A stretch of 64,000 nt of DNA from Tubulanus polymorphus. Lineage: Eukaryota; Animalia; Nemertea. A model generated the notes under the pieces. That model was not told the origin of the DNA. It saw only the letters and a program-made list of their open reading frames with translations, and searched no databases. How positions within the stretch are numbered: position 1 is the stretch's first letter; the number at the start of each line of letters is the position of its first letter. Shown piece by piece: positions 1-20,129 of this stretch. A program made the position numbers and the translations under genes. The stretch is from assembly GCF_964204645.1 (NCBI RefSeq), contig NC_134025.1:14074001-14138000 (forward strand), given 5' to 3'.

Positions 1-4
1 TTTA

Positions 5-343
5 TCAATCAAAAAAATTACTATCATCAAAATATTTAGTTAACTTATTTATGATTAATTCAACATTTATTTCATTACTAGTTTTATGATTATCATATAT
101 TTTGGATAATATGTTTTTGATATCTTCAATAATTCCATCTTCATTTAATTCATAATATTCTAAAGGTGATTTAATTAAATCAATTACTTTTTCTATATTA
201 TACTTTTCTTTATCAATCATTGACACATTGTTAAATGATTTACTTTTTATATCAGTAATTACATCATTTAGTTTAATTCTCATTTCTTTACCATGTTTAA
301 AATCAAACCCAAAACATATACTCGGTCCAACAGTTATATTCAT
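5..343 (-). CDS. Hypothetical Polinton protein, 112 aa
   Basis: Clean ORF directly downstream of the penton-like gene, preceded by TTTTT..TATAAATG like its neighbours; no motif recognised. Confidence 0.6.
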   Translation of the reverse strand: MNITVGPSICFGFDFKHGKEMRIKLNDVITDIKSKSFNNVSMIDKEKYNIEKVIDLIKSPLEYYELNEDGIIEDIKNILSKIYDNHKTSNEINVELIINKLTKYFDDSNFFD

Positions 344-359
344 TTATATAGGTGAAAAA

Positions 360-1118
360 TTACTCTTTACATCTTATAACTAATTCATAAATTACAGGAA
401 AGTTATTTAAATCAATTAAGTATCCATTATGATTTCTAATTTCTAATCTAAAATTATTAAAACTAGGAATGCATGGTTTGAAATCACATTCTGTTAAATT
501 ATAATTTATTTGCGTTCCAAATTGTTTAACATTCTTCAATGGTAAAATGTTTAGTAAACCAGAATTACAAGTTATATCTTTAGTTGCTTCGAATGTTTTT
601 GTAGGATCGATTAAATTGCAATAAATATAAAAGTGTGTGTAAGGTATTAAGTTTGGTGTAACTTCTACGTTTCCTGTAGCAGTAAATGGTTTAATTCCTA
701 ACATTTTAGCTAATGGTTTGTTTACCATAAATGCTTGTTTGTTTCCTTCATCTAACTTTATTTTAATTTTATCAGAACTATCACTTTTTATGAATCTAAT
801 TAAAAATTTATCTTCACTTCTAAGTTTTAATCGTGCTCTTTTATTAATTTCTTGAGCTAATGTTTCTAAATTATATAATCCTGGTTTTAATAATAGATTA
901 TACCATTTATCTATATTTTCTACATAAATCATAAACAATCTATGTTCAATACTTTTATCCGATACATTGTAAAAAGAATTACATAAACTTATATTTACTA
1001 ATTTCAAATCAACGCAATTCTTAAATTCTCTATCTAATTGTACTAATAAATTATGAGATTTATAATTTATAAGTTTTCTAGAATCAACAAATATTCTGTA
1101 TTCTTTTAATTCTACCAT
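360..1118 (-). CDS. Putative minor capsid (penton) protein of Polinton/adintovirus type
   Basis: 252 aa with N-terminal IFVDS, LKPGLYN, YIYCNLID, LLNILPL and C-terminal RLEIRNHNGYLIDLNNFPVIYELVIR, a pattern typical of Polinton single jelly-roll mCP. Confidence 0.7.
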   Translation of the reverse strand: MVELKEYRIFVDSRKLINYKSHNLLVQLDREFKNCVDLKLVNISLCNSFYNVSDKSIEHRLFMIYVENIDKWYNLLLKPGLYNLETLAQEINKRARLKLRSEDKFLIRFIKSDSSDKIKIKLDEGNKQAFMVNKPLAKMLGIKPFTATGNVEVTPNLIPYTHFYIYCNLIDPTKTFEATKDITCNSGLLNILPLKNVKQFGTQINYNLTECDFKPCIPSFNNFRLEIRNHNGYLIDLNNFPVIYELVIRCKE

Positions 1119-1186
1119 TATTTATAACATAAAAAAATTACCGCTCATCACTAAAAATTAATTTTAATAAAATTTTTCCTTAATAA

Positions 1187-2506
1187 ATGGATGAGAAGAT
1201 AGCATGCGAAATTTGTGGTGAACTTCTAAGAAAAAGTAATAAGTCTCGACATATGAAAAAACATGATGAAAATTATAAACCCCCTAAAATAAACTGTCCA
1301 AATTGTAATAAAACATTCTCTAGAAATTATTTCAAAAAACATTCGGAGAAGTGTAAAAAAAATAACTTAATAGTTAATGTTGATAGTAACGAAAGTAATA
1401 ATAATTCTGTTGAAGTTGAACCTGAAATTATTTGGAAAAGACCTTTCTTATTCTATGATAAGGATAATATAAAAGATCATTTCTGTGAGCCTTGTCGAAT
1501 AAAATATAACCCTGAAAATATAGAAGATTGGGAGAATCATCAATTTCATAAAGTACATATAGATAAAATTTCTAATAAATTTGAAGCAGAATTCAATGAA
1601 AGAAAAAATAATTTATTAGAAAAAATAAAATATGAGAAAACGTTACCAGATAATAAAGAAACAGTTGAAAAGTTAGAAAAACAATATAATGAATTAACAA
1701 GAAAAACATATTATTGTAAATATTGTAAATTGATTATTACAACAAGTAATTCAAATCTACATAATAGAACAATAAAACATAAAGAAAACGTAAGAAAATA
1801 CCAAGAGCTTAATGAAGATCTATTACCAGTAAATTATAAACAAAAATGCCCACAATGTATTTATGTGACCTTAAGGCAAGAAGGTACTGTGTTATTTTGT
1901 GTTGATTGTGGATGGCAAAGGAATTTATGGGGTGAAGAAAAAACTAGAAATTTTCTTATAGAACCAAAATTAAATTATCTTGATGAAATCTTTAAAATAT
2001 TTTCTATAGAAGATCATACACCAGAATATATGCAATGGCTTGAAAAAATGAAAATAATAGAAAATAAAAATGGTGAAATAACTAAAAAAGATATTATAAA
2101 AACAATTATTCCACCAACATTTAACACAAAACAAAAGAAAATGTATTTATATTTATTATTTAACGATTATTATGAAAAACCTTATGAAAAATTAACAGAA
2201 GAAGATATGGAAAATATAAAAAAATTATTTAAACAAATATTAATGTATCATTTGGAAAATAGAATAACAGATTCAATAAATTATGAATTCTTTTTAAATA
2301 AGATTGTAAATTATTTAAACCTAGATATTATAATTCCATTTGATGAATTAACAAACAAAAAGAAACAAAGAGAGCGAGATGAAATGTGGAACAAGATAGA
2401 ACTTTATTTAAATGAGAAAAATGGAATGGAAGAAGAACCTGAACAATTAAATGAAAATGAAGAAGCCAATAGTGATTTCGAGTTTGATGATATAGATCCA
2501 TTTTAA
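1187..2506 (+). CDS. Multi zinc-finger protein, 439 aa, acidic C-tail
   Basis: CEICGELLRKSNKSRHMKKH, CPNCNKTFSRNYFKKHSEKC, CEPC..HQFHKVH, YYCKYCK..HNRTIKH, CPQC..CVDC. Stop codon overlaps the polB stop (TTAA at 2503-2506). Confidence 0.75.
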   Translation: MDEKIACEICGELLRKSNKSRHMKKHDENYKPPKINCPNCNKTFSRNYFKKHSEKCKKNNLIVNVDSNESNNNSVEVEPEIIWKRPFLFYDKDNIKDHFCEPCRIKYNPENIEDWENHQFHKVHIDKISNKFEAEFNERKNNLLEKIKYEKTLPDNKETVEKLEKQYNELTRKTYYCKYCKLIITTSNSNLHNRTIKHKENVRKYQELNEDLLPVNYKQKCPQCIYVTLRQEGTVLFCVDCGWQRNLWGEEKTRNFLIEPKLNYLDEIFKIFSIEDHTPEYMQWLEKMKIIENKNGEITKKDIIKTIIPPTFNTKQKKMYLYLLFNDYYEKPYEKLTEEDMENIKKLFKQILMYHLENRITDSINYEFFLNKIVNYLNLDIIIPFDELTNKKKQRERDEMWNKIELYLNEKNGMEEEPEQLNENEEANSDFEFDDIDPF

Positions 2507-5500
2507 TAACCATAAGGTAATGTTTTTATACCATCATCTGAAATATGCCTTTTATCATCAAATGGATTTAAACTAGTTTTTTCAACTTCATTAATGTACA
2601 TCTCATGATCTTCTGATCTTAAACAATTCATCTTGTGTTTCATTACAATTGATTTATATAAACACTTTATATAATCTTGAAATTCTATATGTTTATCAAC
2701 CACATGTTTTGTTATTCCTTTTAACTTTTTAGCTTCATGATCTTTTGTTCTGTAACTATACATTTTACTTCTTATCCCAACAAATTCAATCATTTCATCA
2801 CCTCCTAATTCATCTTTAAACTTACCAGGAATCTTTTTATTATCATTGCTAAATAGTTCATGATCTTTAGGATAATTGCTAAAATCAAAATGATGTTTTA
2901 ATGTTTTTAAGTCTTTTGTTATGTCATTTGTCTTGATTTTTAGTATGTACGCATCCGTATTTTTTTGTATTAATGGGAACCCAGAATTGAATGTTCCATC
3001 ATCTGTTGATAAATCATAAACATAGTCAGTTGGGTTATATATTTCAAATAAATCTTTAACTTCTTCAGTTAAATCTTTTTCTACATGCCTTAAATTAAAA
3101 CAATTTGGTTTAGATTTAATTAATTCTATATTCATATTAAATCCTAATGAACTACATAATATATTTAATCCTGATATAGCAACTTTTCCTTTTTGAGCAA
3201 AGGATATTGTTTTGCGGTTTTGGAAACTTTTTGAACCATCTGCTGCATAGAATCCAATGAAGAACCATTTTCTAAGATTATATTCTGAATTTAATATATA
3301 ATCTGGTACTATTTTTTCTTTAGTTGAAGTATTACTTTTCACTATTGTATGAATATAGAATTCATTATTATATTCTATAGCAAAATCTTTAGGATTATTT
3401 ACAAGTATTCTATAAACTGCTGATGATTTCATAACATCCATGATTCTAAATGTTTTATGTGAATAAACTTCTTCACAGAATTTCTTAATTCTTTCTAATA
3501 ATTTTAAGTCTTGATTGCATAAATACCAACAATATTTATTACCCCAAACATATTTATACACTCCTGCTGAACCATCACCCATGAAAAATCCTTTGATAAA
3601 ATATTCTTTTTCTTCTAATGTTTCAGGTTCTATATTATAAATATTATCAATTATTTCATCAAATGACATATGATTCATTCTTTGGAAAAATCTTTTATGT
3701 AATAATTCATCTCCAATTTTTATATCAGTTGGTTTTATTTTATTACCATTTTGTTTAATTAAACTATGGTCTCCGGTGCAATCTACAAATCCTAATTTAG
3801 TTCTAACTCTATAGATTTTCTTATTTGTTTTATGTCTAATAATATTCTTTAATTTTTTCCATCCATTTCTTGTCCAAACATCCATTAATCCATTTATTTG
3901 TATTAATTCTTTTTCACCATATGAAATATAATATTCATTTTGTTTTGGAATTATTTCTGAAATTCTTCTTACCAATATTTTATTATTACATTTTAATAAT
4001 ATTGGGGTGTCAGCCGTTACAGAATCGAAGTACAGAATTTCTATATGTTTTTCCCCAAACAATGGTTGTAAAACATTGTAATAAAAATTATACATTAGTA
4101 ATTTTGAAATTTCTAAAACGGTTGAACCTATAAATATAGGTTTATTGAATTTCATGGACGTTCTTTTTAATTTAACTGCTGTTAAATAATCTTCAAATCT
4201 TTTATTTCCTAAATGTCTAGGACTTGATTGTAAATGTCTTAATCTTTCAGAATTATTTACTAATTCAATATCATTTCTATTTCTAATATTTTCACATGTT
4301 TTACCATAAAAACTATTATTCATTAATTTGAAGAAATCTTTTTCAAAATCTGTTTTTGATATGGTTCTCTGTTGAGTATTGAAATCTATATATTTTTCTA
4401 ACCACTTCGATTGATTAAATTCAATATATCTATGTACTTTCTTTAATTTCATTCCTTGTTTTAGATAAAATTTTAACATTCTATAATGAACAATATAATT
4501 GTATTTATTATTTTGAGTAAGTATTAATTTTTCTGTAAAAACATGATCTTTCGGTTTTATTTTCTTCTGGTATTCACTTAAATAACTATCATCTACAGTT
4601 AAATGTTCTGGGCAATAAGGTAAGTTTCTTGTTTTAAACTTTATATTTTCAGGATATTCTAAATCAACTACAAAGAAATAACCAATTGGTGCTTCATCTT
4701 TTAAACTCGCAATTGCGCTTTCCCAATCAGTTTTATCACCATTTTCAACTTCTGTTAATATAAAATTTTTATATGGTTGAGGTTGCATCATTGCCCAACC
4801 ATATAAATTATTGGCGTCAATATATAATAATTTATATTCATCATTTGCTTTAAAATACCTATCTCCCATAACACCACTAATTCCACCTCTAATTGATTTT
4901 TCAAATAATAAAACCATATCTGGTTCTTTTAATAAATCTAATTCTACATTTGTATATTTTAAACCACATTGCCAGGTTAAACCAGGACTAGAGTAGCAAT
5001 AACAAGGATCAACATTAAAATGATTCAAATTAACTTCTCTAAATTTTTCAAATATGTCAGCTAATATCATAACATCTGATTTTAAATATAAATCAACTAA
5101 TTCACCATGATTTTTCATATTAAAATGGTTCCAAATATTTAATGTTCTATCAAAAACTTCGTCTTTCACATACTCCTCTTTTAATTTATCATAAAATTGA
5201 TCTTTTAATAATTCTATTACATTAAAATCATCATGTGTTTTATAAAATGAATAAGGAATTGCGCCTTTATATCTCAATAATTTAAAATCTTGTTCATTTG
5301 GATAATAATATCGAGTTATAACAAAATCATTATCAACTAAACTTTTTGATAAATTATCTAATGAACTTGCTAGAAATCTATAAGAATCTAAAAATCTAAT
5401 GCAACCAAATTGAAATGAAATATAATTTTCAGATGTTTTAGCTAATAGTTTAAAATCATATTTTCTTACATTTGCTTCATTCATAGCATTATATTCTTCT

Positions 5501-7566
5501 ATTTCTTGATTAATTGCACCCAATTTTCCTGATAATTGTTTTATAAATAGATGGGTATCATATCCTGATAAATTATGAAATAATATTGGTACAAAATTTA
5601 CTTTTTTAGCTTGTAAATTGCAATCTTCATGAGCAGCTCCACGATATTTTGAATTTAAATGATTATGATCTCTAACTCTTTTATCAAATGAATAAAAACG
5701 TTTTTCACAATAACAACAATGAGTTGCATAATTAAAATCAATTTCATCTTCTTTTGTCATAACTATTCTTTTATTTTTGTTTAATAATTTTGCAAAATCA
5801 CTTTCTAATTCAATAATTTTATCACAAAAATCATTAACTACATTTTCACCTCTAAAAGAAATATATTGACTTTCATATAATTCGGGATAATTTGATTTTA
5901 TGTAAATTCCATAAGCAGCAGCTCTTTGATGAACTTTTTTAATTGTATTTATAATTGGTGGGTCTTGTATTGTGTCTTCATTTAATTCATTTCCTTTGTC
6001 CATTGATTTTAATAATTGCTTTTTGTTATATATTTCTTTTCTATCTTGATCAGTTAATTCTTTATTCAACGATTCAAAATCCCCATAAATTACAAATGGA
6101 ACAATATTCTTAAATTTATGATTAGTAAATTTCAATTTATAATCTTTTTCTGTTGGCATTATTAATTTACAAAAATCTTTATTATCACATAATTCTTTAT
6201 GTTTTAATAATGTATTCTCAGTCATAAATTTAGATAAACATTTTCTACATAGATAAATTTTATTATGATGATCACTTTCTGTTCTAAAGAATAAATCAAT
6301 TTGTTTTAACCACATATAATGTTCATTTTCATCTTTTTTGTAATATAACAAATCTATAGCATTTTCATCATCATAATATTCTGTTAAATATAAAGCTTCC
6401 AATGTATAATCTTTAATATTTTCACCTTTTGTCTTTGGTAATTGCATTAATTCGAATACATTTATTTTTAAATTATTAACTTTTTCTATTTTAGGAATCA
6501 TTTTTATAGTTACTGGATATTGATCAATTTTATATAATGTTTCATATTTCCGATAATCTGTTATTCTACAAACATTTTCCTGTGTTGGATGTAAACAACT
6601 AATAATTGACCATAGAAAACATTTATTATCTTCATTTTGAACATTTATTACTGCTTTTGTTGTAAACGGTAATTTGATATAACTTGATGCTTTCATATCC
6701 TTTTCTGTTGTAAAGTTTGAATCATTTTTAAACATTTTATTACTTTTTGATGTTTTATTCCTTTTTGAATTATAAACATTTAAATCTAAATATATAATTT
6801 CATTCAATGTTAAGCCAGAACCCTCAAAATATCTTTCTTCAATATGACGTTTAAATTCATTTAATATTTTTTCTAACTTCTCTTTTATTTGTGTTTTTGA
6901 AATTATTTCTTCAGAGTGTGTTTGAATATTATAATCCATTTTTTCTTCTGACTTTATAAAACTTACTTTCCCAGAGATACTAATTTTTGGATATTCAACA
7001 TCTGTTATCAAATCTAGTAATTTTTCTATTATTTCATTAAATGTACTATAATCTTCTATTGTTGTACCTTTAAAAAATCTAAATATAATAGCTGCAGGAC
7101 CAATTTTACTATGTAATGTTTCTAAGATTTCAATTGTATCTTTTATTTCTAGTGAATCAATATAATTTCTAACATTTTCCATGTAAGGTTTATTTGAAAT
7201 GGATTTAGTTTTTGAAGTTGATTCTTTTACTTGTTGAGGTTTATCATCAAAATAATCTATTCCTAAAACATTATTTCTCAAATTTTGACGGTGTTTTTCT
7301 GTTTCGAGATGTCTATTATAATTCCTTTTTGTTATAAATTCATCACAAACTTCACATTTTATTTCATTCACATTCATATTTTCTAATCGTTCTTTTCTTT
7401 CATTGGAATTTTCTGGAGTTTCAAAATCTATTACATTTTTTATATGATTTGCAGTTTTTTCATGTCGTGTTTTATTAGATGTATCGATGTATTTTTTACA
7501 ATATTGACAATAATATTGATTTTTATTGACATTATTGTTTTCTAGTTGGTGTTCATTCTCCCCCAT
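2503..7566 (-). CDS. polB: Protein-primed family B DNA polymerase (pPolB) precursor with intein
   Basis: ExoI VIYGDFES, ExoII FHNLSGYD, ExoIII YLKSDV, motif A YIDANNLYG, motif B KLMNNSFYGK, motif C YFD/TDA split by an insert, KLKGI. Endonuclease VII-like insert (CCYC..RDHNH..YRGAAHEDCN). N-terminal CFLWS..HYMW resembles the vOTU region; two N-terminal C2H2-like fingers. ORF uninterrupted over 1687 aa. Confidence 0.95.
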   Translation of the reverse strand: MGENEHQLENNNVNKNQYYCQYCKKYIDTSNKTRHEKTANHIKNVIDFETPENSNERKERLENMNVNEIKCEVCDEFITKRNYNRHLETEKHRQNLRNNVLGIDYFDDKPQQVKESTSKTKSISNKPYMENVRNYIDSLEIKDTIEILETLHSKIGPAAIIFRFFKGTTIEDYSTFNEIIEKLLDLITDVEYPKISISGKVSFIKSEEKMDYNIQTHSEEIISKTQIKEKLEKILNEFKRHIEERYFEGSGLTLNEIIYLDLNVYNSKRNKTSKSNKMFKNDSNFTTEKDMKASSYIKLPFTTKAVINVQNEDNKCFLWSIISCLHPTQENVCRITDYRKYETLYKIDQYPVTIKMIPKIEKVNNLKINVFELMQLPKTKGENIKDYTLEALYLTEYYDDENAIDLLYYKKDENEHYMWLKQIDLFFRTESDHHNKIYLCRKCLSKFMTENTLLKHKELCDNKDFCKLIMPTEKDYKLKFTNHKFKNIVPFVIYGDFESLNKELTDQDRKEIYNKKQLLKSMDKGNELNEDTIQDPPIINTIKKVHQRAAAYGIYIKSNYPELYESQYISFRGENVVNDFCDKIIELESDFAKLLNKNKRIVMTKEDEIDFNYATHCCYCEKRFYSFDKRVRDHNHLNSKYRGAAHEDCNLQAKKVNFVPILFHNLSGYDTHLFIKQLSGKLGAINQEIEEYNAMNEANVRKYDFKLLAKTSENYISFQFGCIRFLDSYRFLASSLDNLSKSLVDNDFVITRYYYPNEQDFKLLRYKGAIPYSFYKTHDDFNVIELLKDQFYDKLKEEYVKDEVFDRTLNIWNHFNMKNHGELVDLYLKSDVMILADIFEKFREVNLNHFNVDPCYCYSSPGLTWQCGLKYTNVELDLLKEPDMVLLFEKSIRGGISGVMGDRYFKANDEYKLLYIDANNLYGWAMMQPQPYKNFILTEVENGDKTDWESAIASLKDEAPIGYFFVVDLEYPENIKFKTRNLPYCPEHLTVDDSYLSEYQKKIKPKDHVFTEKLILTQNNKYNYIVHYRMLKFYLKQGMKLKKVHRYIEFNQSKWLEKYIDFNTQQRTISKTDFEKDFFKLMNNSFYGKTCENIRNRNDIELVNNSERLRHLQSSPRHLGNKRFEDYLTAVKLKRTSMKFNKPIFIGSTVLEISKLLMYNFYYNVLQPLFGEKHIEILYFDSVTADTPILLKCNNKILVRRISEIIPKQNEYYISYGEKELIQINGLMDVWTRNGWKKLKNIIRHKTNKKIYRVRTKLGFVDCTGDHSLIKQNGNKIKPTDIKIGDELLHKRFFQRMNHMSFDEIIDNIYNIEPETLEEKEYFIKGFFMGDGSAGVYKYVWGNKYCWYLCNQDLKLLERIKKFCEEVYSHKTFRIMDVMKSSAVYRILVNNPKDFAIEYNNEFYIHTIVKSNTSTKEKIVPDYILNSEYNLRKWFFIGFYAADGSKSFQNRKTISFAQKGKVAISGLNILCSSLGFNMNIELIKSKPNCFNLRHVEKDLTEEVKDLFEIYNPTDYVYDLSTDDGTFNSGFPLIQKNTDAYILKIKTNDITKDLKTLKHHFDFSNYPKDHELFSNDNKKIPGKFKDELGGDEMIEFVGIRSKMYSYRTKDHEAKKLKGITKHVVDKHIEFQDYIKCLYKSIVMKHKMNCLRSEDHEMYINEVEKTSLNPFDDKRHISDDGIKTLPYGY
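2959..4023 (-). mobile_element. Intein (355 aa, residues 1182-1536) with LAGLIDADG homing endonuclease
   Basis: Block A SVTADTPILL, block B CTGDHSL, LAGLIDADG-like GFFMGDGS and GFYAADGS, block F VYDLST, C-terminal ..IQKN followed by extein +1 Thr. Removing it restores YFD-TDAY. Confidence 0.93.
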
Positions 7567-7569
7567 TTA

Positions 7570-7632
7570 TTAGGAAAAAAAATTACTTGTGGTGATGAGT
7601 GTTAGGAAAAAAATTACTTGTGGTGATGAGTG
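7570..7632 (-). promoter_or_regulatory. Tandem ~31-bp duplication immediately upstream of polB containing CTCATCAC
   Basis: ttaggaaaaaaaattacttgtggtgatgagtg x2; CTCATCAC also occurs at 1144-1151 between the divergent penton and ZnF genes. Confidence 0.45.
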
Positions 7633-7846
7633 GTGTCTCGTCCTCTCGTCCTCTGATCTGAAAGCCTACTTTTCTAATTACTAAAGCGTTTTATGTAATT
7701 GTGGAAAATATTATACTCGAAGCAATAAACCACACCATCTTAAATCAAAATATCATAACTCAAAAGTAATTATTCAACTCTAAATATTCAAAATAAGATA
7801 TTTCAAATTACTTATCTTATCATTCTTTTAATTTTTTCTTAAATAA

Positions 7847-8044
7847 ATGGATGGTTTCATCCAAACTGGGAAAAGTGATTTGAAACATTACCTTGTAGCA
7901 GGAGGGTTAATATTGGCGGCATTATACTTTTACTATGAAAATATTTCAAAAGATTTGATGAATGAAAATAATAAATTGAGTAAAGAATTAAAGAAGTTAA
8001 ATGGAAACAATCACAGAAATAAAAAGAATAAAAAGTTAATTTAG
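7847..8044 (+). pseudogene. Frameshift-truncated copy of the 77-aa small membrane protein
   Basis: Nearly identical to 10079..10312 but loses the C-terminal VNLENDLEDLNSIF through a 1-bp deletion in an A-run. Confidence 0.65.
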
Positions 8045-8102
8045 AAAATGATTTAGAGGATTAAAACAGCATCTTTTAATTTCATATATTTTGACTATAA
8101 AA

Positions 8103-8405
8103 ATGAGTGAAAATATATTAAACTTATTACATCTAATATATAAAAATCAACAGAATATTAAATCAGTTATTATGCTTACAGGTTTATTTTCTTTTTCAAT
8201 TTATAGTATAAAACAGTTGTTAGAATTCTATGATAGTTGTAAAATTAGATATACAGAATTGAAAGATAATATAAATTATATTTCAGATAGATTGAATAAT
8301 ATTAATTGTTGTGAAATTTGTAATAAAAGATATAAAAATAAAAAGAGTTTGAGAAATCATAAATATATTCATGAATTAGATGATAAACTGTATAATTCAA
8401 ATTAA
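8103..8405 (+). CDS. Small protein: hydrophobic segment + coiled coil + C2H2 finger (duplicate copy)
   Basis: ATG at 8103 in a TATAAAAATG context; CEICNKRYKNKKSLRNHKYIH. Confidence 0.65.
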   Translation: MSENILNLLHLIYKNQQNIKSVIMLTGLFSFSIYSIKQLLEFYDSCKIRYTELKDNINYISDRLNNINCCEICNKRYKNKKSLRNHKYIHELDDKLYNSN

Positions 8406-8501
8406 GCAATAGACTGTTAAATTGGCTGAAATATATAAAAATAGATTATATTATAACTATTTCTATATTTAGGTTAATAATTTATATTTATGATTTTTAT
8501 A

Positions 8502-8622
8502 AAAACTAATTTATATATCTATGTACTAGACGTACGAGTAAGAAAGTAAGATTTTTACCAAGAAAGTAAGAATCTTGGATTCTTACTTGTATGTCTCGTA
8601 CTTGGGTATATGAATTAGTTTT
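8502..8622. repeat. Imperfect ~120-bp palindrome, copy 1
   Basis: aactaatttatatatctatgtactagacgtacgagtaagaa ... ttcttacttgtatgtctcgtacttgggtatatgaattagtt. Confidence 0.85.
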
Positions 8623-8765
8623 ATAATAATTATTCTAATAATAATTCTAATATATTTATAAAAATGAAGAAAATTATATGTTTTCACATAATGAAAATGA
8701 AAAATAGATTATATTATAACTATTTCTATACTTAGATTGATAATTTATTCATTTTTATATAATCT

Positions 8766-8892
8766 AAACTAATTTATATATCTAAGTACTAGACGTACGA
8801 GTAAGAAAGTAAGATTCTTGCCAAGAAAGTAAGATTTCTTGGATTCTTGGATTCTTACTCGTACGTCTAGTACATAGATATATAAATAGTTT
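8766..8892. repeat. Near-perfect ~125-bp palindrome, copy 2 (in the IR spacer)
   Basis: tatatatctaagtactagacgtacgagtaagaa ... ttcttactcgtacgtctagtacatagatatata. Confidence 0.85.
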
Positions 8893-9535
8893 TATCATAT
8901 ATTTCTGTTTCAATATTTATTTATCTCACAGATTTATTATAAATATTTGGAAAAGTATAAATCATATTCAATTATATATTTAGATTTATCATTATTAACA
9001 GAGTAATACAATGAACCCACTAGATTGTTAAACTGTTTAAGTATTGAATTGTGTAGATTGTATATTCATAAACTAAATGATAAATCACGAATAAGACTGT
9101 TAAATTAGCTGAAAATATAAAATATGTTTTATTTCTGAAAATGAAGTCACAGAAGTAATGTATGTTTTAATTCATTCAAATATGATATTGTAAATTCTTT
9201 ACATTTGACTAGGATAATACAATAGTGATATTAGTTAGTTGGTTTATTCAATAAGAGAAACAATGAAATAATACAAGAGTGATACTAACAGTTAAAGTTA
9301 TTGAATTTCTTGTTAAATCTATTTGAATTCTAGTCAATTCTTGTTAACCAATAGCGTGAATAGAAATCAAAAGATTTAAATAAAAAAACATAAGTTACTT
9401 TACTTCATGAAAATGAATAAATTATCAATCTAAGTATAGAAATAGTTATAATATAATCTATTTTTCATTATGTGAAAACATATAATTTATTCATTTTCAT
9501 AAATATATTAGAATTATTATTAGAATAATTATTAT

Positions 9536-9655
9536 AAAACTAATTCATATACCCAAGTACGAGACGTACGAGTAAGAATCCAAGATTCTTACTTTCTTGG
9601 TAAGAATCTTACTTTCTTACTCGTACGTCTAGTACATAGATATATAAATCAGTTT
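9536..9655. repeat. Imperfect palindrome, copy 3 (inverse of copy 1)
   Basis: Same GTACTAGACGTACGAGTAAGAA arms and CAAGAAAGTAAGA-type core. Confidence 0.85.
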
Positions 9656-9752
9656 TTATAAAAATCATAAATATAAATTATTAATCTAAATATAGAAATA
9701 GTTATAATATAATCTATTTTTATATATTTCAGCCAATTTAACAGTCTATTGC

Positions 9753-10055
9753 TTAATTTGAATTATACAGTTTATCATCTAATTCATGAATATATTTATG
9801 ATTTCTCAAACTCTTTTTATTTTTATATCTTTTATTACAAATTTCACAACACTTAATATTATTCAATCTATCTGAAATATAATTTATATTATCTTTCAAT
9901 TCTGTATATCTAATTTTACAACTATCATAGAATTCTAACAACTGTTTTTTACTATAAATTGAAAAAGAAAATAAACCTGTAAGCATAATAATTGATTTAA
10001 TATTCTGTTGATTTTGATATATTAGATGTAATAAGTTTAATATATTTTCACTCAT
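9753..10055 (-). CDS. Small protein: hydrophobic segment + coiled coil + C2H2 finger
   Basis: Paralogue of 8103..8405 with about four amino-acid differences. Confidence 0.65.
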   Translation of the reverse strand: MSENILNLLHLIYQNQQNIKSIIMLTGLFSFSIYSKKQLLEFYDSCKIRYTELKDNINYISDRLNNIKCCEICNKRYKNKKSLRNHKYIHELDDKLYNSN

Positions 10056-10078
10056 TTTTATAGTCAAAATATATGAAA

Positions 10079-10312
10079 TTAAAAGATGCTGTTTAAATCC
10101 TCTAAATCATTTTCTAAATTAACTTTTTTATTCTTTTTATTTCTGTGATTGTTTCCATTTAACTTCTTTAATTTTTTACTCGATTTATTATTTTCATTCA
10201 TCAAATCTTTTGAAATATTTTCATAGTAAAAGTATAATGCAGCCAATATTAACCCTCCTGCTACAAGGTAATGCTTCAAATCACTTTTACCAGTTGGGAT
10301 GAAACCATCCAT
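10079..10312 (-). CDS. 77-aa single-pass membrane protein with basic coiled coil
   Basis: YLVAGGLILAALYFYY hydrophobic stretch; TTTTTTCTTAAATAAATG start context. Confidence 0.65.
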   Translation of the reverse strand: MDGFIPTGKSDLKHYLVAGGLILAALYFYYENISKDLMNENNKSSKKLKKLNGNNHRNKKNKKVNLENDLEDLNSIF

Positions 10313-10370
10313 TTATTTAAGAAAAAATTAAAAGAATGATATGTAATTTGAAATATCTTATTTTGAATAT

Positions 10371-10997
10371 CTAGAGTTGAATTATTACTTTTGAGTTATG
10401 ATATTTTGATTTAAGATGGTGTGATTTATTGCTTCGAGTATAATATTTTCCACAATTACATAAAACGCTTTCATTAGGGTTATATTTAGGCGTAACAATT
10501 TCATTATCTAAGTTACATTGAATTCCAACATCATTATAAGAATTATTATTAACTGATTCACATTGAATACCAATATTTGATGAATTTTCATTATAGATAA
10601 TTTGTTTATTATCAAAATTGAAATAATATAATTGTCTTTTTTCAATTCTTAAGTTAATCAAATCATTATAATCTTTTGAAAGTATTATATCATCATTTCT
10701 TTCATTGAAAGGAGTTTTAAGAATATTAATTATGTTTTCATCTAAAGTTCCTTTAAAATTTAAAACTGTATTGAACATTTTAGGATTTTTAACACCATTA
10801 TCAAAAGTATCAATTAGTTTAGTAATTAAATATGTTTCATTTGATAATATTAGATTAATCATAGTTATGTTATCGATTTTATAATGTCTGGCGGACACTA
10901 AATTTATTGCTGAAATATAATTTCTAATGTTAAACTGTGAAAATGATTTATTGATTTCATTGATTTCGATTTTAAAGTTGGGTTCTTCTTTCTTCAT
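10371..10997 (-). CDS. Hypothetical 208-aa protein with C-terminal zinc finger
   Basis: CNCGKYYTRSNKSHHLKSKYH; repeated (I/V)GIQC motif. Confidence 0.7.
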   Translation of the reverse strand: MKKEEPNFKIEINEINKSFSQFNIRNYISAINLVSARHYKIDNITMINLILSNETYLITKLIDTFDNGVKNPKMFNTVLNFKGTLDENIINILKTPFNERNDDIILSKDYNDLINLRIEKRQLYYFNFDNKQIIYNENSSNIGIQCESVNNNSYNDVGIQCNLDNEIVTPKYNPNESVLCNCGKYYTRSNKSHHLKSKYHNSKVIIQL

Positions 10998-11030
10998 TTT
11001 TATAACAAAATTTTAATTAAAACTCATCCA

Positions 11031-11390
11031 AATATAAATATTCAATGTTTTAAATATGAATTATTTCACTCGTTAATAACTCGTTACTTTTTATATTAAA
11101 AATCAAGAATTTAACACATATAAATATAAATATTCACTGTTTTAAATATGAATTATTTCACTCGTTAATTACTCGTTACTTTTATACTGAAAATAAGAAT
11201 TTAACGCATATAAATATAAGTATTCAATGATTTAAATATGAATTATTTCAATCACACTTTACTAACACTTTTAATGTCTAAAAATCTAACTCATACAAAT
11301 ATAAATATTGAAATATGTTTAAAATATATCTATATATCTATTCTATAAGAGCTCGTTAATTACTCGTTACTTTTTTACTAACACTTTTAT
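11031..11390 (+). repeat. Subterminal ~90-bp tandem repeat, 3-4 decaying copies
   Basis: aatataaatattca..ttttaaatatgaattatttcactcgttaat(a/t)actcgttactttt at 11031, 11123, 11213. Confidence 0.85.
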
Positions 11391-11456
11391 ATTGAATAAT
11401 CTATCAATTTATATGTTATTCATATATATTTTATTCATGTATATAAATATTTAAAG

Positions 11457-11649
11457 AGTAATAGGGGTAATGGGCTTTCAGGTTAAAGGTTGAACGGTTG
11501 AGAAATTTTCCAAATGTGAAATAATAATAATTTCTACTTGAATTAGGAGTGTACGCGACTAATTCAAGTAGAAATTATTGTTATTTTCATATTTGGAAAA
11601 TTTCTCGACCGTTCGACCTTTGGCCTGAAAGCCCATTACCCCTATTACT
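11457..11649. repeat. 193-bp terminal palindrome of the Polinton
   Basis: Arms 11457-11546 and 11559-11649, centre gtgtacgc; both ends read AGTAATAGGGGT inward. Confidence 0.92.
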
Positions 11650-12797
11650 TGCGGACATACTACAGAAATATATAGATATGGGGGAAAACCGGTACCGCCC
11701 AAGCGACGCACCAAACACTCCGAAAAGACAAGTCATAAAACCCCAAAACGAACATCCCAAAACCCAAACCCAAAAGGGGATTTAAACATTAGATCAAAAC
11801 AGCATTCGCAAAGAAGCAATATTTAGATCATATGTAAAAGCCTTACGGGACTGAACCTCCCTAATCGCTCACAAAGATAAAATATGTACACGTGCAATGG
11901 TTTGTAAGCATCATCAACCGCGGTAACATGACCAGAGGGAAGGAAAAGCAACCCCTCAATAGTTCCAACGGTAACCACAATCGTCGAAAATAGAATCCAC
12001 ACCCTCAAAGCAGATCGTACCGTATCCCACAGGCAACTCAAGGAGTATACTAAACCAACCCCCCAGCCAACATGACCGAAGCCATGACAACGGACACTAA
12101 GAGGCCCGCGGCTAGAGAATTGAAAACAGGACGCAATAAAACCACGAATTGAAACTGATCGACGATCTAATTTAATTACCAGCGTAAACAATCGACAGGT
12201 TTCAGACGCCAAATCTTTTGCAATTTCCACCCCGGAAAACGGTAAAGACAAATTGACCAACAAGCAAAACTCGTGGAATACAAGGGCAAACGCAACACGA
12301 AGCTGACCAGCCATGAACAAGAAATATGAAAATGCTAAGTTCTGAGTGCTCGCGTAAAACTGCAAAATGTAAGGTATTTGTCACACGTCTCGCACGAACG
12401 GAGCAAACTTAATCAAGCAAACTTAATTGAGCGCGACTAAAATCTCCACGGAAACGAAAATGCGCTAAATAAAATCACCGAAACGGATCAGAAAACCGAA
12501 ATAATAGACGAACTAGGCTGACCGATAAATCTCACGTTAGTGGGACCAACGTAGTATACGGAAACACATTCAGAATATGGAGAACCAACAACCCTGACCT
12601 CCCGAGTTTTCCCTGCCCTAAAAATGCATTTATTCATTATCACTCTTTATTCTCAAACGTAACAATTCTTCCATTCTTTTCTCACACACTCCGGAGCAGG
12701 GCACACAGCCCTCCATCCCGCACCCAGCAGGCAACAAGACGCACAGTCCTGTGACGCACACAGCCTCATATCCACATCCAGTCGCTACGACAAGTTT

Positions 12798-12950
12798 GTC
12801 CAAACATATTGGACGCCCGCACACAGTGGGCTTCAAAATCCTTCCAAACACATTGGATCGATAGAAATTTGGTCCAAACACATTGGACGCCCACACACAG
12901 TGGGCTTCAAAAATCTATCCAAACACATTGGATCTGACCACACACAGTGG
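12798..12950 (+). repeat. Short ~72-bp tandem duplication
   Basis: gtccaaacacattggacgcccacacacagtgggcttcaaaat..tccaaacacattggatc x2. Confidence 0.7.
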
Positions 12951-13943
12951 ACTACCCCCTATTCCACACACAGTGGAATACCCCGGACGACAGACTCCAA
13001 ACTACACAAAAGAGGACACACAGTTCAACAAAAGTACATGGTCACAGCACGAAGCCAAGCCGTGAACCACCACAACCGCATAAGCACGTCCGACAGCGAG
13101 GAAAACGAAAGCAAAACTGATTTCTTCCGTCTGTCCGCAGCACCACGTAGTGAGAATAGTTGCGAAATTCGTGTTTTCCACAAAGATCGTGAACTGGTAC
13201 GCTCAGTTGCATAGAATCTCGTGGGCTCGTCTTTAGGACTAAACGAACAGGTGCCAGAGGAATGGGCGGTGAGGCGTTCTTTGTACGGGACAAACTCGTT
13301 ATCCGCGAAAACTGTGACCGCGTGCCGATGGACAGCCCTAGAACCAGCGCGGAGGTATTATGCGTACAATTCGTAGACCGGACTGTTCTCGTATCTCGAA
13401 GTCGTTATGTTATCGAATTTGTAAATAGTGTAAATTAATGTGACAGTAGTCCAAATGTGAAAATGTAAATAGAAATATCGTTGGCTCGCATGTATATCAT
13501 AGGGCAGATACGGTTGTAGGTAAAAATCCCCAAATATTCAAAGTAGGTAAAAATCTCCACTTGTTGATTTTCAAGAAATTTCAAAGCAAGATGGTATAAA
13601 TAATAACTTTCATACGTCGGCCTACCTGATGTAACTCCAAATATTGTCACCTCTGATTTAAATGAGCAAAATGTTGTCACTTTTGATTTGAATAAGCAAA
13701 ATGTAACCAGTACAGCAAACGCAGCAACCATAAGTGAAACGCCTTGTATCAAATGATCATTTAAAAGTTTTCTACTAGTTTTCTGCAGTACTCAGAATGT
13801 ATGTGGATGTAATCTATATTACCCCAGAAAATAGTCGTTATTATTCAGAAATAGGTATCAGAGGGAGGAATTGAAATAGAGTTAAATGAAGAAATCCCAC
13901 ACTTCGAATTTGAAATTATACAATCAAATTTATTATTACGAAA

Positions 13944-13985
13944 CCACAACGTTTCGGCTGTTGACTAACAGCCATCATCAGGTGG
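13944..13985 (-). ncRNA. Minimal hammerhead ribozyme in the inverted pLTR
   Basis: Reverse complement of the 17183-17224 motif. Confidence 0.7.
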
Positions 13986-14319
13986 AATGACCAGAAAAAC
14001 AAGTTACAAAGCATATAAACTCACAGGATCTAAAATAAAAGCAGTGTGTCAAAACTAAAGATAAACAGACCAAGCAATAAAACATCAAGGGGTACCGTGG
14101 AAACCACAGCAATTCTAAACAGTTCAGAGTAAAAACAAATTAAGTGACTAAGAACAGATTTTTGGTATGGCTATGGGGAATTCACTTTCCCCTGTTCTTG
14201 CAGGTTTATTTTTGGAACATGTCGAAAGTGAAATTCTTCCTCTTTACACTGAAAGTAGACCCAAAATTTGGCGACGTTACGTTGATGATATTCTTTGTTT
14301 AGTTTCCCCCGATTTTAAT

Positions 14320-16077
14320 AAACCATTTTACAGTTGCTAGCCGCCATTTTGTTAGGGTACTTTTGTCCCGTATTGTTGGGTCATTTTTTTCTATTTTTTA
14401 AAAACTGTCCGTGATGCGTGTTGTATCATATTTCATCTGTCCATGGATGGATTTTGACAACTTCAGCAACATTCAAACTGCGTGAATCTCTAGTTTTCAG
14501 TTATGTAAAAATAATTTCTCAAATTTACAACAATGCGACATGAGAGCGATATAAAAATCGGTGGTCAGTTTTTGCCGTGCGCATAGAAATCAAGGGTACT
14601 GAACTTTGAAGTTCGTTATTTTCAGAAATAATTTTCTAAAAAATCCTAGCATTTCAAGCACTGTGCGCATAAATGCCCCCTTTCAGGTGAACTTTGAAAT
14701 TTTAAGATATCTTGCCTAGTTTTTTTTCTATGGCACTTTAACTACAGCGCGTGTATTGTCATTCCGAGATTCGGCGCTGTTTTCTTTGCGTGTATTTCAG
14801 TATATGGGTGTTATTTTTTCACTTTTACTACACTTGTCTCTACGGAAAATGGTTTTAATTGTTGGTACGAGTATCAGGTTTTAATATTACGTCATTTATG
14901 CAATATAATAGATCGAAGACATTAGAGATGTTGGAGTTAAAGGGATTTTTTTACCAGTTTTAGCAGCGAGACTGAACGGCATTTTGATCACGTATTCGAA
15001 GTTGCGCGCGGGAAGAGAATATATGGGCCTATATTGAGATGGAAGAAGAAAAGAAATATAACACACAAAATCGAGTATGATGACCATTTAAATCAGTAGT
15101 CTATCAATAAATTTACATAAAAATCTACTGAAATTAGATGGATGGAGAAGTGGTCAAAAAGCTGGACAAATGGGTTGGGGCAAATATTCAGCTACTTTCT
15201 ATGAATACTTTCTATTAAGTACACACAAGATTGATTAGATTGGGAAGAAAATATAGGAAAACGTTTTCTTGCTTTGGTGGTGACATATCAAGTATCAAGC
15301 CCTAATGTAAGACACCGGTGATAAAAAGTAAAAAGTGACATCTACCATCACAAAAACGCAAGAAGTGTGTGGATTGCATTTACAACAAAAGAGTGATATT
15401 TTGGGTTTTCTTGGGTGCATGTACGTAAGCCTCTGCCTGCTGTAAAAGCGGCTACCAATACAGCCATTACGAACTAGCGCCGGAGAACGGAATACAGTAT
15501 TAATGCCGTAATATTAAAACCTGATACTCGTACCAACAATTGAAACCATTTTCCGTAGAGACAAGTGTAGTAAAAATGAAAAAATAACGCCCATATACTG
15601 AAATACACGCAAAGAAAACAGCGCCGAATCTCGGAATGACAATACACGCGCTGCAGTTAAAGTGCCAAAGGAAAAAAACTAGGCAAGATATCTTAAAATT
15701 TCAAAGTTCACCTGAAAGGGGGCATTTATGCGCACAGTTCTTGAAATGCTAGGATTTTTTAGAAAATTATTTCTGAAAATAACGAACTTCAAAGTTCAGT
15801 ACCCTTGATTTCTATGCGCACGGCAAAAACTGACCACCGATTTTTATATTGCTCTCATGTCGCATTGTTGTAAATTTGAGAAATGATTTTTACATAACTG
15901 ATACTAGAGATTCACGCGGTTTGAATGTTGCTGAAGTTGTCAAAATCCATCCATGGACAGATGAAATATGATACAACACGCATCACGGATAGTTTTTAAA
16001 AAAGAGAAAAAAATGACCCAACAATACGGGACAAAAGTACCCTAACAAAATGGCGGCTAGCAACTGTAAAATGGTTT
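14320..16077. mobile_element. Non-autonomous DNA transposon with ~570-bp TIRs (PIF/ISL2EU-like, AT target)
   Basis: TIRs 14320-14891 and 15507-16077, flanked by AT. Excision restores the PLE RT frame (SPDFN-LNGFL). Confidence 0.85.
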
Positions 16078-16967
16078 ATTTGAATGGATTCTTACATTAT
16101 TTGAACTCTTTATATCCTACTTTGAATTTCACTTTTGAGTGGGAAGAAAATAATTGCATCCCGTTTCTCGATGTACTCATTCATAATTTCAAAACAAATT
16201 TGAAATTCTCTGTATATAGAAAACCGACTAACGCTGAAGCTTATCTTCATTTTTTCTCATTTACTCCTTTGAACATCAAAATTGGAATAGCCCAAGGATT
16301 ATTTCTTCGAGCTCTACGTATTTGTGATCAAATGTGTTTAGATAAAGAAATCAAACATATAAGAACTGCTCTCAAGAAACTAGCCTATCCAGACAAAATT
16401 TTGAACAAAGCTTATTTCAAAGCCCGAATTTCTCACTTTGGACATAACGACCTGACCAAAAAACGCAGAGCTCAAAAGAATATTATAATCCCGTATTTAC
16501 CTACTTTGGAACGCTTTAAATCCACATTAAGCACCATCGACACTAGATTAGTCTTTCAGTATAATAACAAACTCACTAATGTTTTAACCAAAAATAAACC
16601 CAACAGTGAGCTAATTGAGTCTGGGGTCCATAAGATACCATGTAAAAATAAAGACTGTAATATGATGTACATCGGCGAAACGGGACGTAATCTCAGTCAG
16701 CGTATTAAAGAACACAAAATAGATATCCGCAACCAAAAGCCTGAGAGTGGAATAGCGAATCGTGTCTTTACAACCAATCACCAATTTGACTTTCAGAATT
16801 CGAAACTTATTTATCCTTGTAAAGATATTCATAAGAGACACATAGTGGAATCAGCCCTTATATGTAAACTTTCGAAATCCAATTTATCTACTAATTTAAA
16901 TACTGGTTTTTCTCCACATAACCAATTATTATCCAGACACATCAACTCTTTATTAGATTTGGGTTGA
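16078..16967 (+). pseudogene. Penelope RT thumb + GIY-YIG endonuclease (3' part of the interrupted ORF)
   Basis: IPFLDV, VYRKPT, GVHKIPC..C..YIGETGR..RIKEH..VESALI..LN. Confidence 0.9.
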
Positions 16968-17182
16968 TGTCACTATGTGTCACTCTGTTATCGCCACCCT
17001 CTTCAGTCCACTTCACTTAGTTACATAATTTGTTTTTACTCTGAACTGTTTAGAATTGCTGTGGTTACCACGGTACCCCTTGATGTTTTATTGCTTGGTC
17101 TGTTTATCTTTAGTTTTGACACACTGCTTTTATTTTAGATCCTGTGAGTTCATATGCTTTGTAACTTGTTTTTCTGGTCATT

Positions 17183-17224
17183 CCACCTGATGATGGCTGT
17201 TAGTCAACAGCCGAAACGTTGTGG
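17183..17224 (+). ncRNA. Minimal type I hammerhead ribozyme in the pLTR
   Basis: ccac CUGAUGA u ggcuguu-aguc-aacagcc GAAA cguu gugg. Confidence 0.75.
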
Positions 17225-17289
17225 TTTCGTAATAATAAATTTGATTTTCAAATTCGAAGTGTGGGATTTCTTCATTTATCTACAGTTTA

Positions 17290-19750: not shown

Positions 19751-20129
19751 TCCGTGGCGATCTAGTCGTGGTGTTTATTTTATACAAATTTTCAATCTTT
19801 TAGTAAGCTGCCTTTGTGCTCTGTAGTGTCTGCTTATCTTGTGTAGTGTCTGCTCAACTTGTGTTCATACCTTATTGTTTGCTTATGTTGCTTACGTGCT
19901 TTAAACTATGCTTGATTTATACCATACTTTAGGTGACGGAGTAGGGTAGTATTTTGTTTGCTTTGCTTTGTGTTCTTAGTTGCATATTTTCTATGATTCA
20001 CCAAGTGGGTGGATTTCTCTTGTGTATATTCTTATTTTCTTGTACACACGGGTGGTGTGGTCAGGTGTTTTATTTTGTGCAAACTGTTGAGTTGAGCACC
20101 TGGTGTGATTCAAAGTCAGTTACTCATCA

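Follow-up and report, generated by a model that had tools for sequence, protein, structure and literature searches.

Inteins that interrupt PolB genes at the pol-c site, in motif C, are known from Mimivirus, from archaeal PolB (position III) and from the PolBs of giant viruses. The intein of the Mimivirus PolB is 351 aa long and lies at the site YGD|TDS (PMC549080). Reviews describe inteins as absent from metazoan genomes (PMC5784728, PMC7765530), and intein-bearing viral PolB genes are reported as endogenised in Klebsormidium, Tetrabaena and a labyrinthulomycete (Nucleocytoviricota section of PMC10710043). HNH and VSR nuclease insertions have been described in the protein-primed PolBs (pPolBs) of Polintons (Jeong et al., PMC10748475), and Krupovic et al. 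suggest that such insertions 'result from intein invasions' (PMC11161782); in the main text of Jeong et al. (PMC10748475) the words 'intein' and 'LAGLIDADG' have 0 occurrences. In addition, Chilo iridescent virus carries a Gln-type intein (cited in PMC549080). Since this is a virus of animals, protein splicing in animal cells has precedent. The host gene of that intein encodes ribonucleotide reductase.

In the present study, we analysed a stretch of 64 kb of DNA (the window), which holds a pPolB gene interrupted within its catalytic motif by an intein; the gene and the parts of the insert are as follows.

2503..7566, minus strand: pPolB open reading frame, 1687 aa, no stop; the N-extein (residues 1-1181) ends in YFD and the C-extein (from residue 1537) starts with TDA
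2959..4023, minus strand: intein, 355 aa, in frame, residues 1182-1536 of the 1687-aa pPolB
about residues 1-110 and 316-355 of the intein: HINT splicing domain, flanking a two-motif LAGLIDADG endonuclease

An earlier note on this DNA had described a 355-aa insert between YFD and TDA in an unbroken frame, and both the translation and the intein-less homologues bear this out. The junctions read ILYFD|SVTAD on the N side and LIQKN|TDAY on the C side. Because three homologues that are 72-73% identical in the N-extein (P0137-39) run through YFD|TDS uninterrupted, the boundaries of the intein are exact, and exactly the intein columns are missing from three empty homologues (P0137, P0148 and P0253). 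The N-extein matches PF03175 (E 7e-19), its polymerase motifs were located, and homologues of the pPolB were found in 21 viral contigs, most of them 14-20 kb long; the PF03175 match and these homologues uphold the identification of the host protein as a Polinton protein-primed polymerase. It likely belongs to the divergent 'Beta' class of PMC8502044, as its weak PF03175 match suggests. Judged by sequence, the insertion site is the pol-c site (motif C, between YxD and TD) known from Mimivirus and archaeal PolB, as the same note had proposed: the motif-C position is that of the intein described in PMC549080, and the intein tree places the insert with motif-C inteins. Among the 117 loci examined, 101 gave an intein-like stretch ending in N|TDS. 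An Endonuclease-VII-like motif was also noted near residue 633 of the pPolB, with PF02945 matches in its relatives.

Ser1, TxxH, two LAGLIDADG motifs, a terminal Asn and Thr+1 had been listed for the insert, and all of them were located in the translation. The splicing residues present are Ser1, block B TGDH at 83-86 (T83/H86), block F D337 (YVYD at 334), N355 and Thr+1; the LAGLIDADG motifs are GFFMGDG at 145 (D150) and GFYAADG at 257 (D262), with both acids present. The penultimate residue is a lysine (K354), where histidine is usual but non-obligatory, and among 10 relatives checked this position held Lys in 5, His in 4 and Ser in 1. A Hint-domain match, which the earlier note had made decisive for its reading, was found: TIGR01445 (intein N-terminus) scored 31.5 bits against a cut-off of 24.5, and intein structures were matched by the structure model. 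The Pfam Intein_splicing profile gave E 2e-8 (34.4 bits, slightly below its cut-off of 35.8), and LAGLIDADG_3 (PF14528) gave E 5e-7, above the cut-off. The AlphaFold model, built on a 40-row alignment, had a pLDDT of 90; its best PDB matches were the endonuclease-bearing inteins 7qsu, 2cw7 and 7qst (E about 1e-16), I-DmoI, PI-PfuI and PI-SceI were among the fold matches, and the top viral matches in a BFVD fold search were giant-virus PolBs. By residues and modelled fold, the insert is a class 1 intein with a HINT fold, which is predicted to splice. Its endonuclease part has the two acidic helices and the modelled fold of a LAGLIDADG homing endonuclease and may cut the empty allele. A hedgehog-type or BIL HINT domain was ruled out, as the insert carries an endonuclease and sits within a PolB.

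The insert thus resembles the pol-c inteins of Mimivirus, archaeal PolB position III and giant-virus PolBs in site, Ser1/Asn/Thr+1, TxxH, LAGLIDADG motifs and length; unlike them, it resides in a protein-primed Polinton-type PolB with about 20-27% flank identity, in an element that is multi-copy and likely chromosomal. Like the HNH and VSR insertions, it places a nuclease domain in a Polinton pPolB; no HINT domain was described for those, and here the catalytic motif itself is split by an entire intein. As with the endogenised PolBs of algae and a protist, the intein occupies a DNA polymerase gene of viral type on a nuclear scaffold; in contrast to those viral-like genes, its carrier is a self-mobile, multi-copy Polinton family of a likely animal host, so that one genome would offer many potential endonuclease targets. 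It also differs from the intein of Chilo iridescent virus, an exogenous iridovirus whose intein is no inherited part of its host's genome. Within the main text of openly available papers, searches brought up no HINT intein described from a Polinton pPolB, nor did a look-up of terms find one in PMC12220804, PMC13768754, PMC13215967 and bioRxiv 10.64898/2026.10.13.758929. A passing mention may exist, because some of these proteins have been tagged automatically by Pfam. The intein allele itself is familiar; what is new is the class of polymerase that carries it and, probably, its location within animal chromosomes.

We consider it probable that this is a pol-c intein in a Polinton pPolB of a likely animal genome, which is predicted to splice and likely persists by homing. 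Before splicing, motif C is split and its two aspartates lie 355 residues apart, and for this reason the polymerase should be inactive. Following the class 1 route (PMC7765530), Ser1 would undergo an N-O shift helped by T83/H86 and D337. Thr+1 would then attack and Asn355 cyclise, by which YFD is predicted to be rejoined to TD. Once freed, the intein could cut motif C in sister copies that lack it, whether these are chromosomal or replicate as linear DNA, and the cut copies would be converted by repair from a copy that carries the intein. On the longer time scale, the intein lineage may have entered pPolBs long ago from the RNA-primed PolB of a large DNA virus and then passed through cycles of gain and loss within Polinton lineages, with at least one jump between two pPolB classes.

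To place the intein among its relatives, two intein searches were made, which yielded 136 proteins; by extein, 15 were pPolB-like, 107 RNA-primed-PolB-like, 5 topoisomerase-II-like and 9 unassigned. The closest inteins were those of pPolBs, at 64% identity for P0019, 50% for P0020 (a cluster of 136 sequences, longest contig 657 kb) and 46% for P0021-23, and RNA-primed PolBs reached 41%, their best members being 40-41% identical by local alignment. A representative search gave 148 new proteins, comprising 135 RNA-primed-PolB-like, 2 topoisomerase-II-like, 11 unassigned and 0 pPolB. Scans of viral contigs with P0001 and P0022 found no relatives, and the 22 loci with related pPolBs (L118-L139) gave no intein match.

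The intein tree was built from 46 inteins of at least 320 aa out of 99 extracted, 31 of its rows being motif-C inteins of RNA-primed PolBs; the 53 shorter inteins, partial sequences, locus-derived inteins and later representative matches were left out, and the tree was midpoint-rooted without an outgroup. In this 46-row tree, the eight full-length pPolB inteins formed one clade (support 100/99), the sister of which, with support of only 79/84, consisted of five RNA-primed PolB inteins. A block G one residue shorter is common to the pPolB intein clade and to inteins of giant-virus MAGs (L001, L002 and L009), and the five sister inteins likewise share the shorter block G with giant-virus-MAG contigs. 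Given the midpoint rooting, it is the location of the diversity that suggests a passage from RNA-primed into protein-primed polymerases. In P0022, a pPolB of a very different class, the intein is 49% identical to that of the window and the flanks are 22% and 33% identical; the corresponding values for the RNA-primed PolBs P0025-27 are 43-46% for the inteins and 20-27% for the flanks. The contrast in P0022 argues for a horizontal move between pPolB classes. A placement of P0022 outside the other seven pPolB inteins was not rejected by the AU test (p 0.22), and we dropped the claim that it is nested inside them, to which this value gives no support.

The link to the inteins of RNA-primed viral PolBs that the earlier note had drawn is supported by the tree, by the fold matches and by the identity contrast in P0022 and P0025-27. 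Its idea of a transfer stood, since the pPolB inteins form a clade amid RNA-primed ones; the window's intein is no fresh jump, because it tracks extein identity within the window's pPolB class (61/64/59 and 68/66/70) and its base composition is matched. With a GC of 24% and a GC3 of 13%, against 23% and 11% in the exteins, a recent arrival was ruled out. Sequence comparison indicates that the window's intein is one member of an old pPolB intein clade present in several other assemblies.

Some further inteins deserve mention. In P0125, a 1164-aa pPolB with a strong PF03175 match, the same motif (YCD|TDS) is interrupted by a distantly related intein of 398 aa, which may mark a second arrival of inteins in protein-primed polymerases; we dropped the claim of a separate origin, as the AU test (p 0.35) leaves a common origin unrejected. 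Related inteins were also seen in topoisomerase II (P0057, P0063, P0078), at a second PolB-type site (P0061, P0067, P0069) and in one non-polymerase protein (P0014). Each of these insertions follows an Asp and precedes TD, a pattern that suggests a short DxD-like context as the guide for switches between sites. In P0025 and P0267, PolBs that by their motifs we take to resemble T4-type phage enzymes, the intein belongs to the subgroup nearest to the Polinton clade.

The distribution of the intein among pPolBs is patchy. Among the best 120 of 4955 pPolB matches, 5 carried the intein, 104 were empty and 11 were unscorable. An extein tree of 51 rows combined 43 of the 104 empties with 8 intein rows, of which two came in from the intein searches, while P0022 and P0023 were omitted; on this tree the intein rows need 8 changes against a shuffled mean of 7.6, and several intein rows have empty sisters (94%, 79% and 74% identical). 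All 8 full-length clade members, which are about 45-65% identical, retain the two acids of the endonuclease, and with 46-61% identity in the endonuclease part against 42-70% in the splicing part, the former has not diverged further than the latter. Many RNA-primed relatives are shortened to 200-260 aa. The patchy distribution and the conserved catalytic acids make homing of the intein likely.

The same distribution could be explained by an old passenger that splices but no longer homes, patchiness having arisen through repeated loss or through recombination with empty copies. Vertical descent with repeated loss predicts that intein identity follows extein identity within the class, as it does; the GC and GC3 of the intein match those of the exteins, and empty copies dominate the best 120 matches. 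Nor does the window copy carry a co-conversion signal: no dip in extein identity was found near its site in the comparison with P0137-39, and a co-conversion tract in this copy is ruled out by the lack of such a dip beside the site. However, the retention of both acids in every full-length clade member and an endonuclease no more diverged than the splicing domain, unlike in the shortened RNA-primed relatives, speak against a passenger, and the jump into the class of P0022 needs horizontal movement. We regard the loss of homing as unlikely.

For an intein that still homes, the full and empty pair P0020/P0148, one of 21 pairs, is instructive, because it diverges specifically around the site (29/40 vs 480/510, p 5e-5). 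This dip may reflect co-conversion or an altered, resistant target in P0148. The empty pPolB alleles P0148, P0153 and P0162 read YxD|CDS instead of YxD|TDS, and these sites could be endonuclease-resistant targets. In the window's own genome, no read joint skipping 2959-4023 was found among the 15 of 253 joints listed; read depth over the intein was 167 and 240 against 325-379 beside it, and the 439-aa open reading frame dips as much (223-278). At position 4037, five contigs of run X1 have a loose end 13 bases from the N-terminal junction of the intein, implying that some copies differ right at the site.

The pPolB gene belongs to an element of which only the right end, at 11649, is visible, the left part lying beyond the window. 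Listed below are its further parts, up to 11649, and the features recognised in the flank.

360..1118, minus strand: predicted penton (minor capsid protein), 252 aa, single jelly-roll by structure model
1187..2506, plus strand: accessory open reading frame with zinc fingers, 439 aa, convergent with the polymerase gene
11457..11649, no strand: right end of the element, 194-nt imperfect palindrome
13914-17254: Penelope-like remnant (GIY-YIG), within nested inverted repeats
20109-22796: LINE endonuclease-reverse transcriptase frame, 895 aa
32088..34281, no strand: mini-element, 2.2 kb, AT-rich, with the same terminal motif as the right end at 11649

The five best matches of the penton model (pLDDT 68) were capsid chains, namely PBCV-1 (two entries), the mavirus penton, EhV-201 and Sputnik; Z was 14.3 for the PBCV-1 chain (rmsd 2.3, 127 aligned), 10.3 for the mavirus penton (rmsd 2.6, 119 aligned) and 9.3 for Sputnik. 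No major capsid, ATPase or protease gene was recognised in the visible 11.6 kb, the window starting inside the element. At 11649 the GC content steps from 23% in the AT-rich block of the element to 37% in the flank, and the outer right end reads 5'-AGTAATAGGGG on the minus strand. The arms of the terminal palindrome are 90% identical, and because the last 194 nt are palindromic the terminal motif is present twice in opposite directions. The hallmark given for Mavericks is a target duplication of 6 bp around terminal inverted repeats that have AG/AGT ends (PMC8097293). The mini-element has inverted repeats of 243 nt (230/243 identical), a 6-bp target duplication TTGGCC, for which the chance of a match is about 4e-4, and a 127-aa open reading frame without Pfam match; it is likely a non-autonomous derivative that shares the ends of the element family. 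Shared ends and a target duplication indicate that the ends of this family insert into DNA of the same host.

In WGS run X7, which is independent and has the same species label, 37,661 reads fell on positions 1-13000, 24,598 of them less than 95% alike, and 1696 reads pass 11649 into mutually unlike sequence (agreement 0.34). This pattern points to a diverse multi-copy family inserted at many sites. None of the contig pieces listed spans 11649, the junction of this copy. The pPolB, predicted penton fold and Polinton-type end mark the host element as Polinton-type, and the reads and the mini-element make its integration likely.

Beyond the element, the flank carries LINE sequence and sequence that we ourselves read as Penelope-like and gypsy-like. 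The intact LINE scored 0.98 to clusters that are 100% Eukaryota, with Arthropoda or Echinodermata the commonest (Atlas, 3-10 members per cluster). As a lead only, the clusters near the related pPolB P0020 were commonest in Arthropoda or Mollusca (scores 0.83-0.84). Nothing but transposons could be recognised in the flank, and no host gene was identified in the window. The flanking transposons make an animal host for the element highly probable. Integration into an animal genome, as the earlier note had it, is likely in view of the many flanks beyond 11649, the duplication at the mini-element and the animal-like LINE.

It might still be that the intein is real and its element lies outside the animal germ line, in a protist or other eukaryotic host, or in a free virus joined by mis-assembly. 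The window yields no host gene, 11649 is spanned by none of the contig pieces listed, and the left end, integrase and major capsid gene fall beyond the window, as such a reading would allow. In contrast, an independent WGS run holds a diverse multi-copy family with many flanks behind 11649, the flanking DNA contains a mini-element that has the same ends and is bordered by a 6-bp target duplication, the LINE resembles animal clusters, and the clusters near P0020 (a lead only) are commonest in Arthropoda or Mollusca. We judge an origin outside the animal germ line to be quite improbable. That the insert is a non-splicing remnant in a dead polymerase copy, as the penultimate Lys in place of His and the Pfam splicing score slightly under its cut-off might suggest, is most improbable given the intact 1687-codon frame, the presence of all nucleophiles and of the block B and F residues, the same Lys in 5 of 10 relatives and the confident structure model.

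A splicing intein in a Polinton of a likely animal host would, if true, be a bounded exception to the absence of inteins in metazoans, as it lies in a virus-like resident of the genome and not in a host gene. It would mean that a pol-c intein can move between two types of polymerase, RNA-primed and protein-primed, whose similarity hardly extends past a few codons of motif C. Such a crossing implies a cell in which elements of both kinds replicated, and it touches on the open question of an active viral phase in animal Polintons. If one lineage has many full and many empty copies, the cycle of invasion, resistance and loss that homing predicts could be tested directly; the element would also provide a meganuclease and a Ser/Thr intein that are adapted to a eukaryotic host. 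A wider reading, in which homing inteins from a giant-virus PolB have long been resident in germ-line Polintons of animals, in both polymerase classes, and are still driving by cleaving the replicase gene of empty Polinton copies on host chromosomes, is tentative and falls a little short of an even chance in our estimate. If true, no natural gene drive by an intein would have been known before from the nuclear genomes of animals, and the lineage would bear witness to cells that Polintons shared with large DNA viruses.

Some minor observations concern the rest of the window. A search of its 64 kb against Rfam gave 0 matches. No RNA data set was listed as matching positions 2500-7600, a result that says nothing about expression. 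Within the element, an inverted duplication (7683-8758 and 9407-10471; 1.07 kb, 96.7%) holds two copies of a 100-aa C2H2-finger open reading frame. Read depth over it is about 40-80, against 350-400 over the polymerase, and many reads leave at 7682; because of this low depth and these departing reads, the duplication is specific to some copies of the element.
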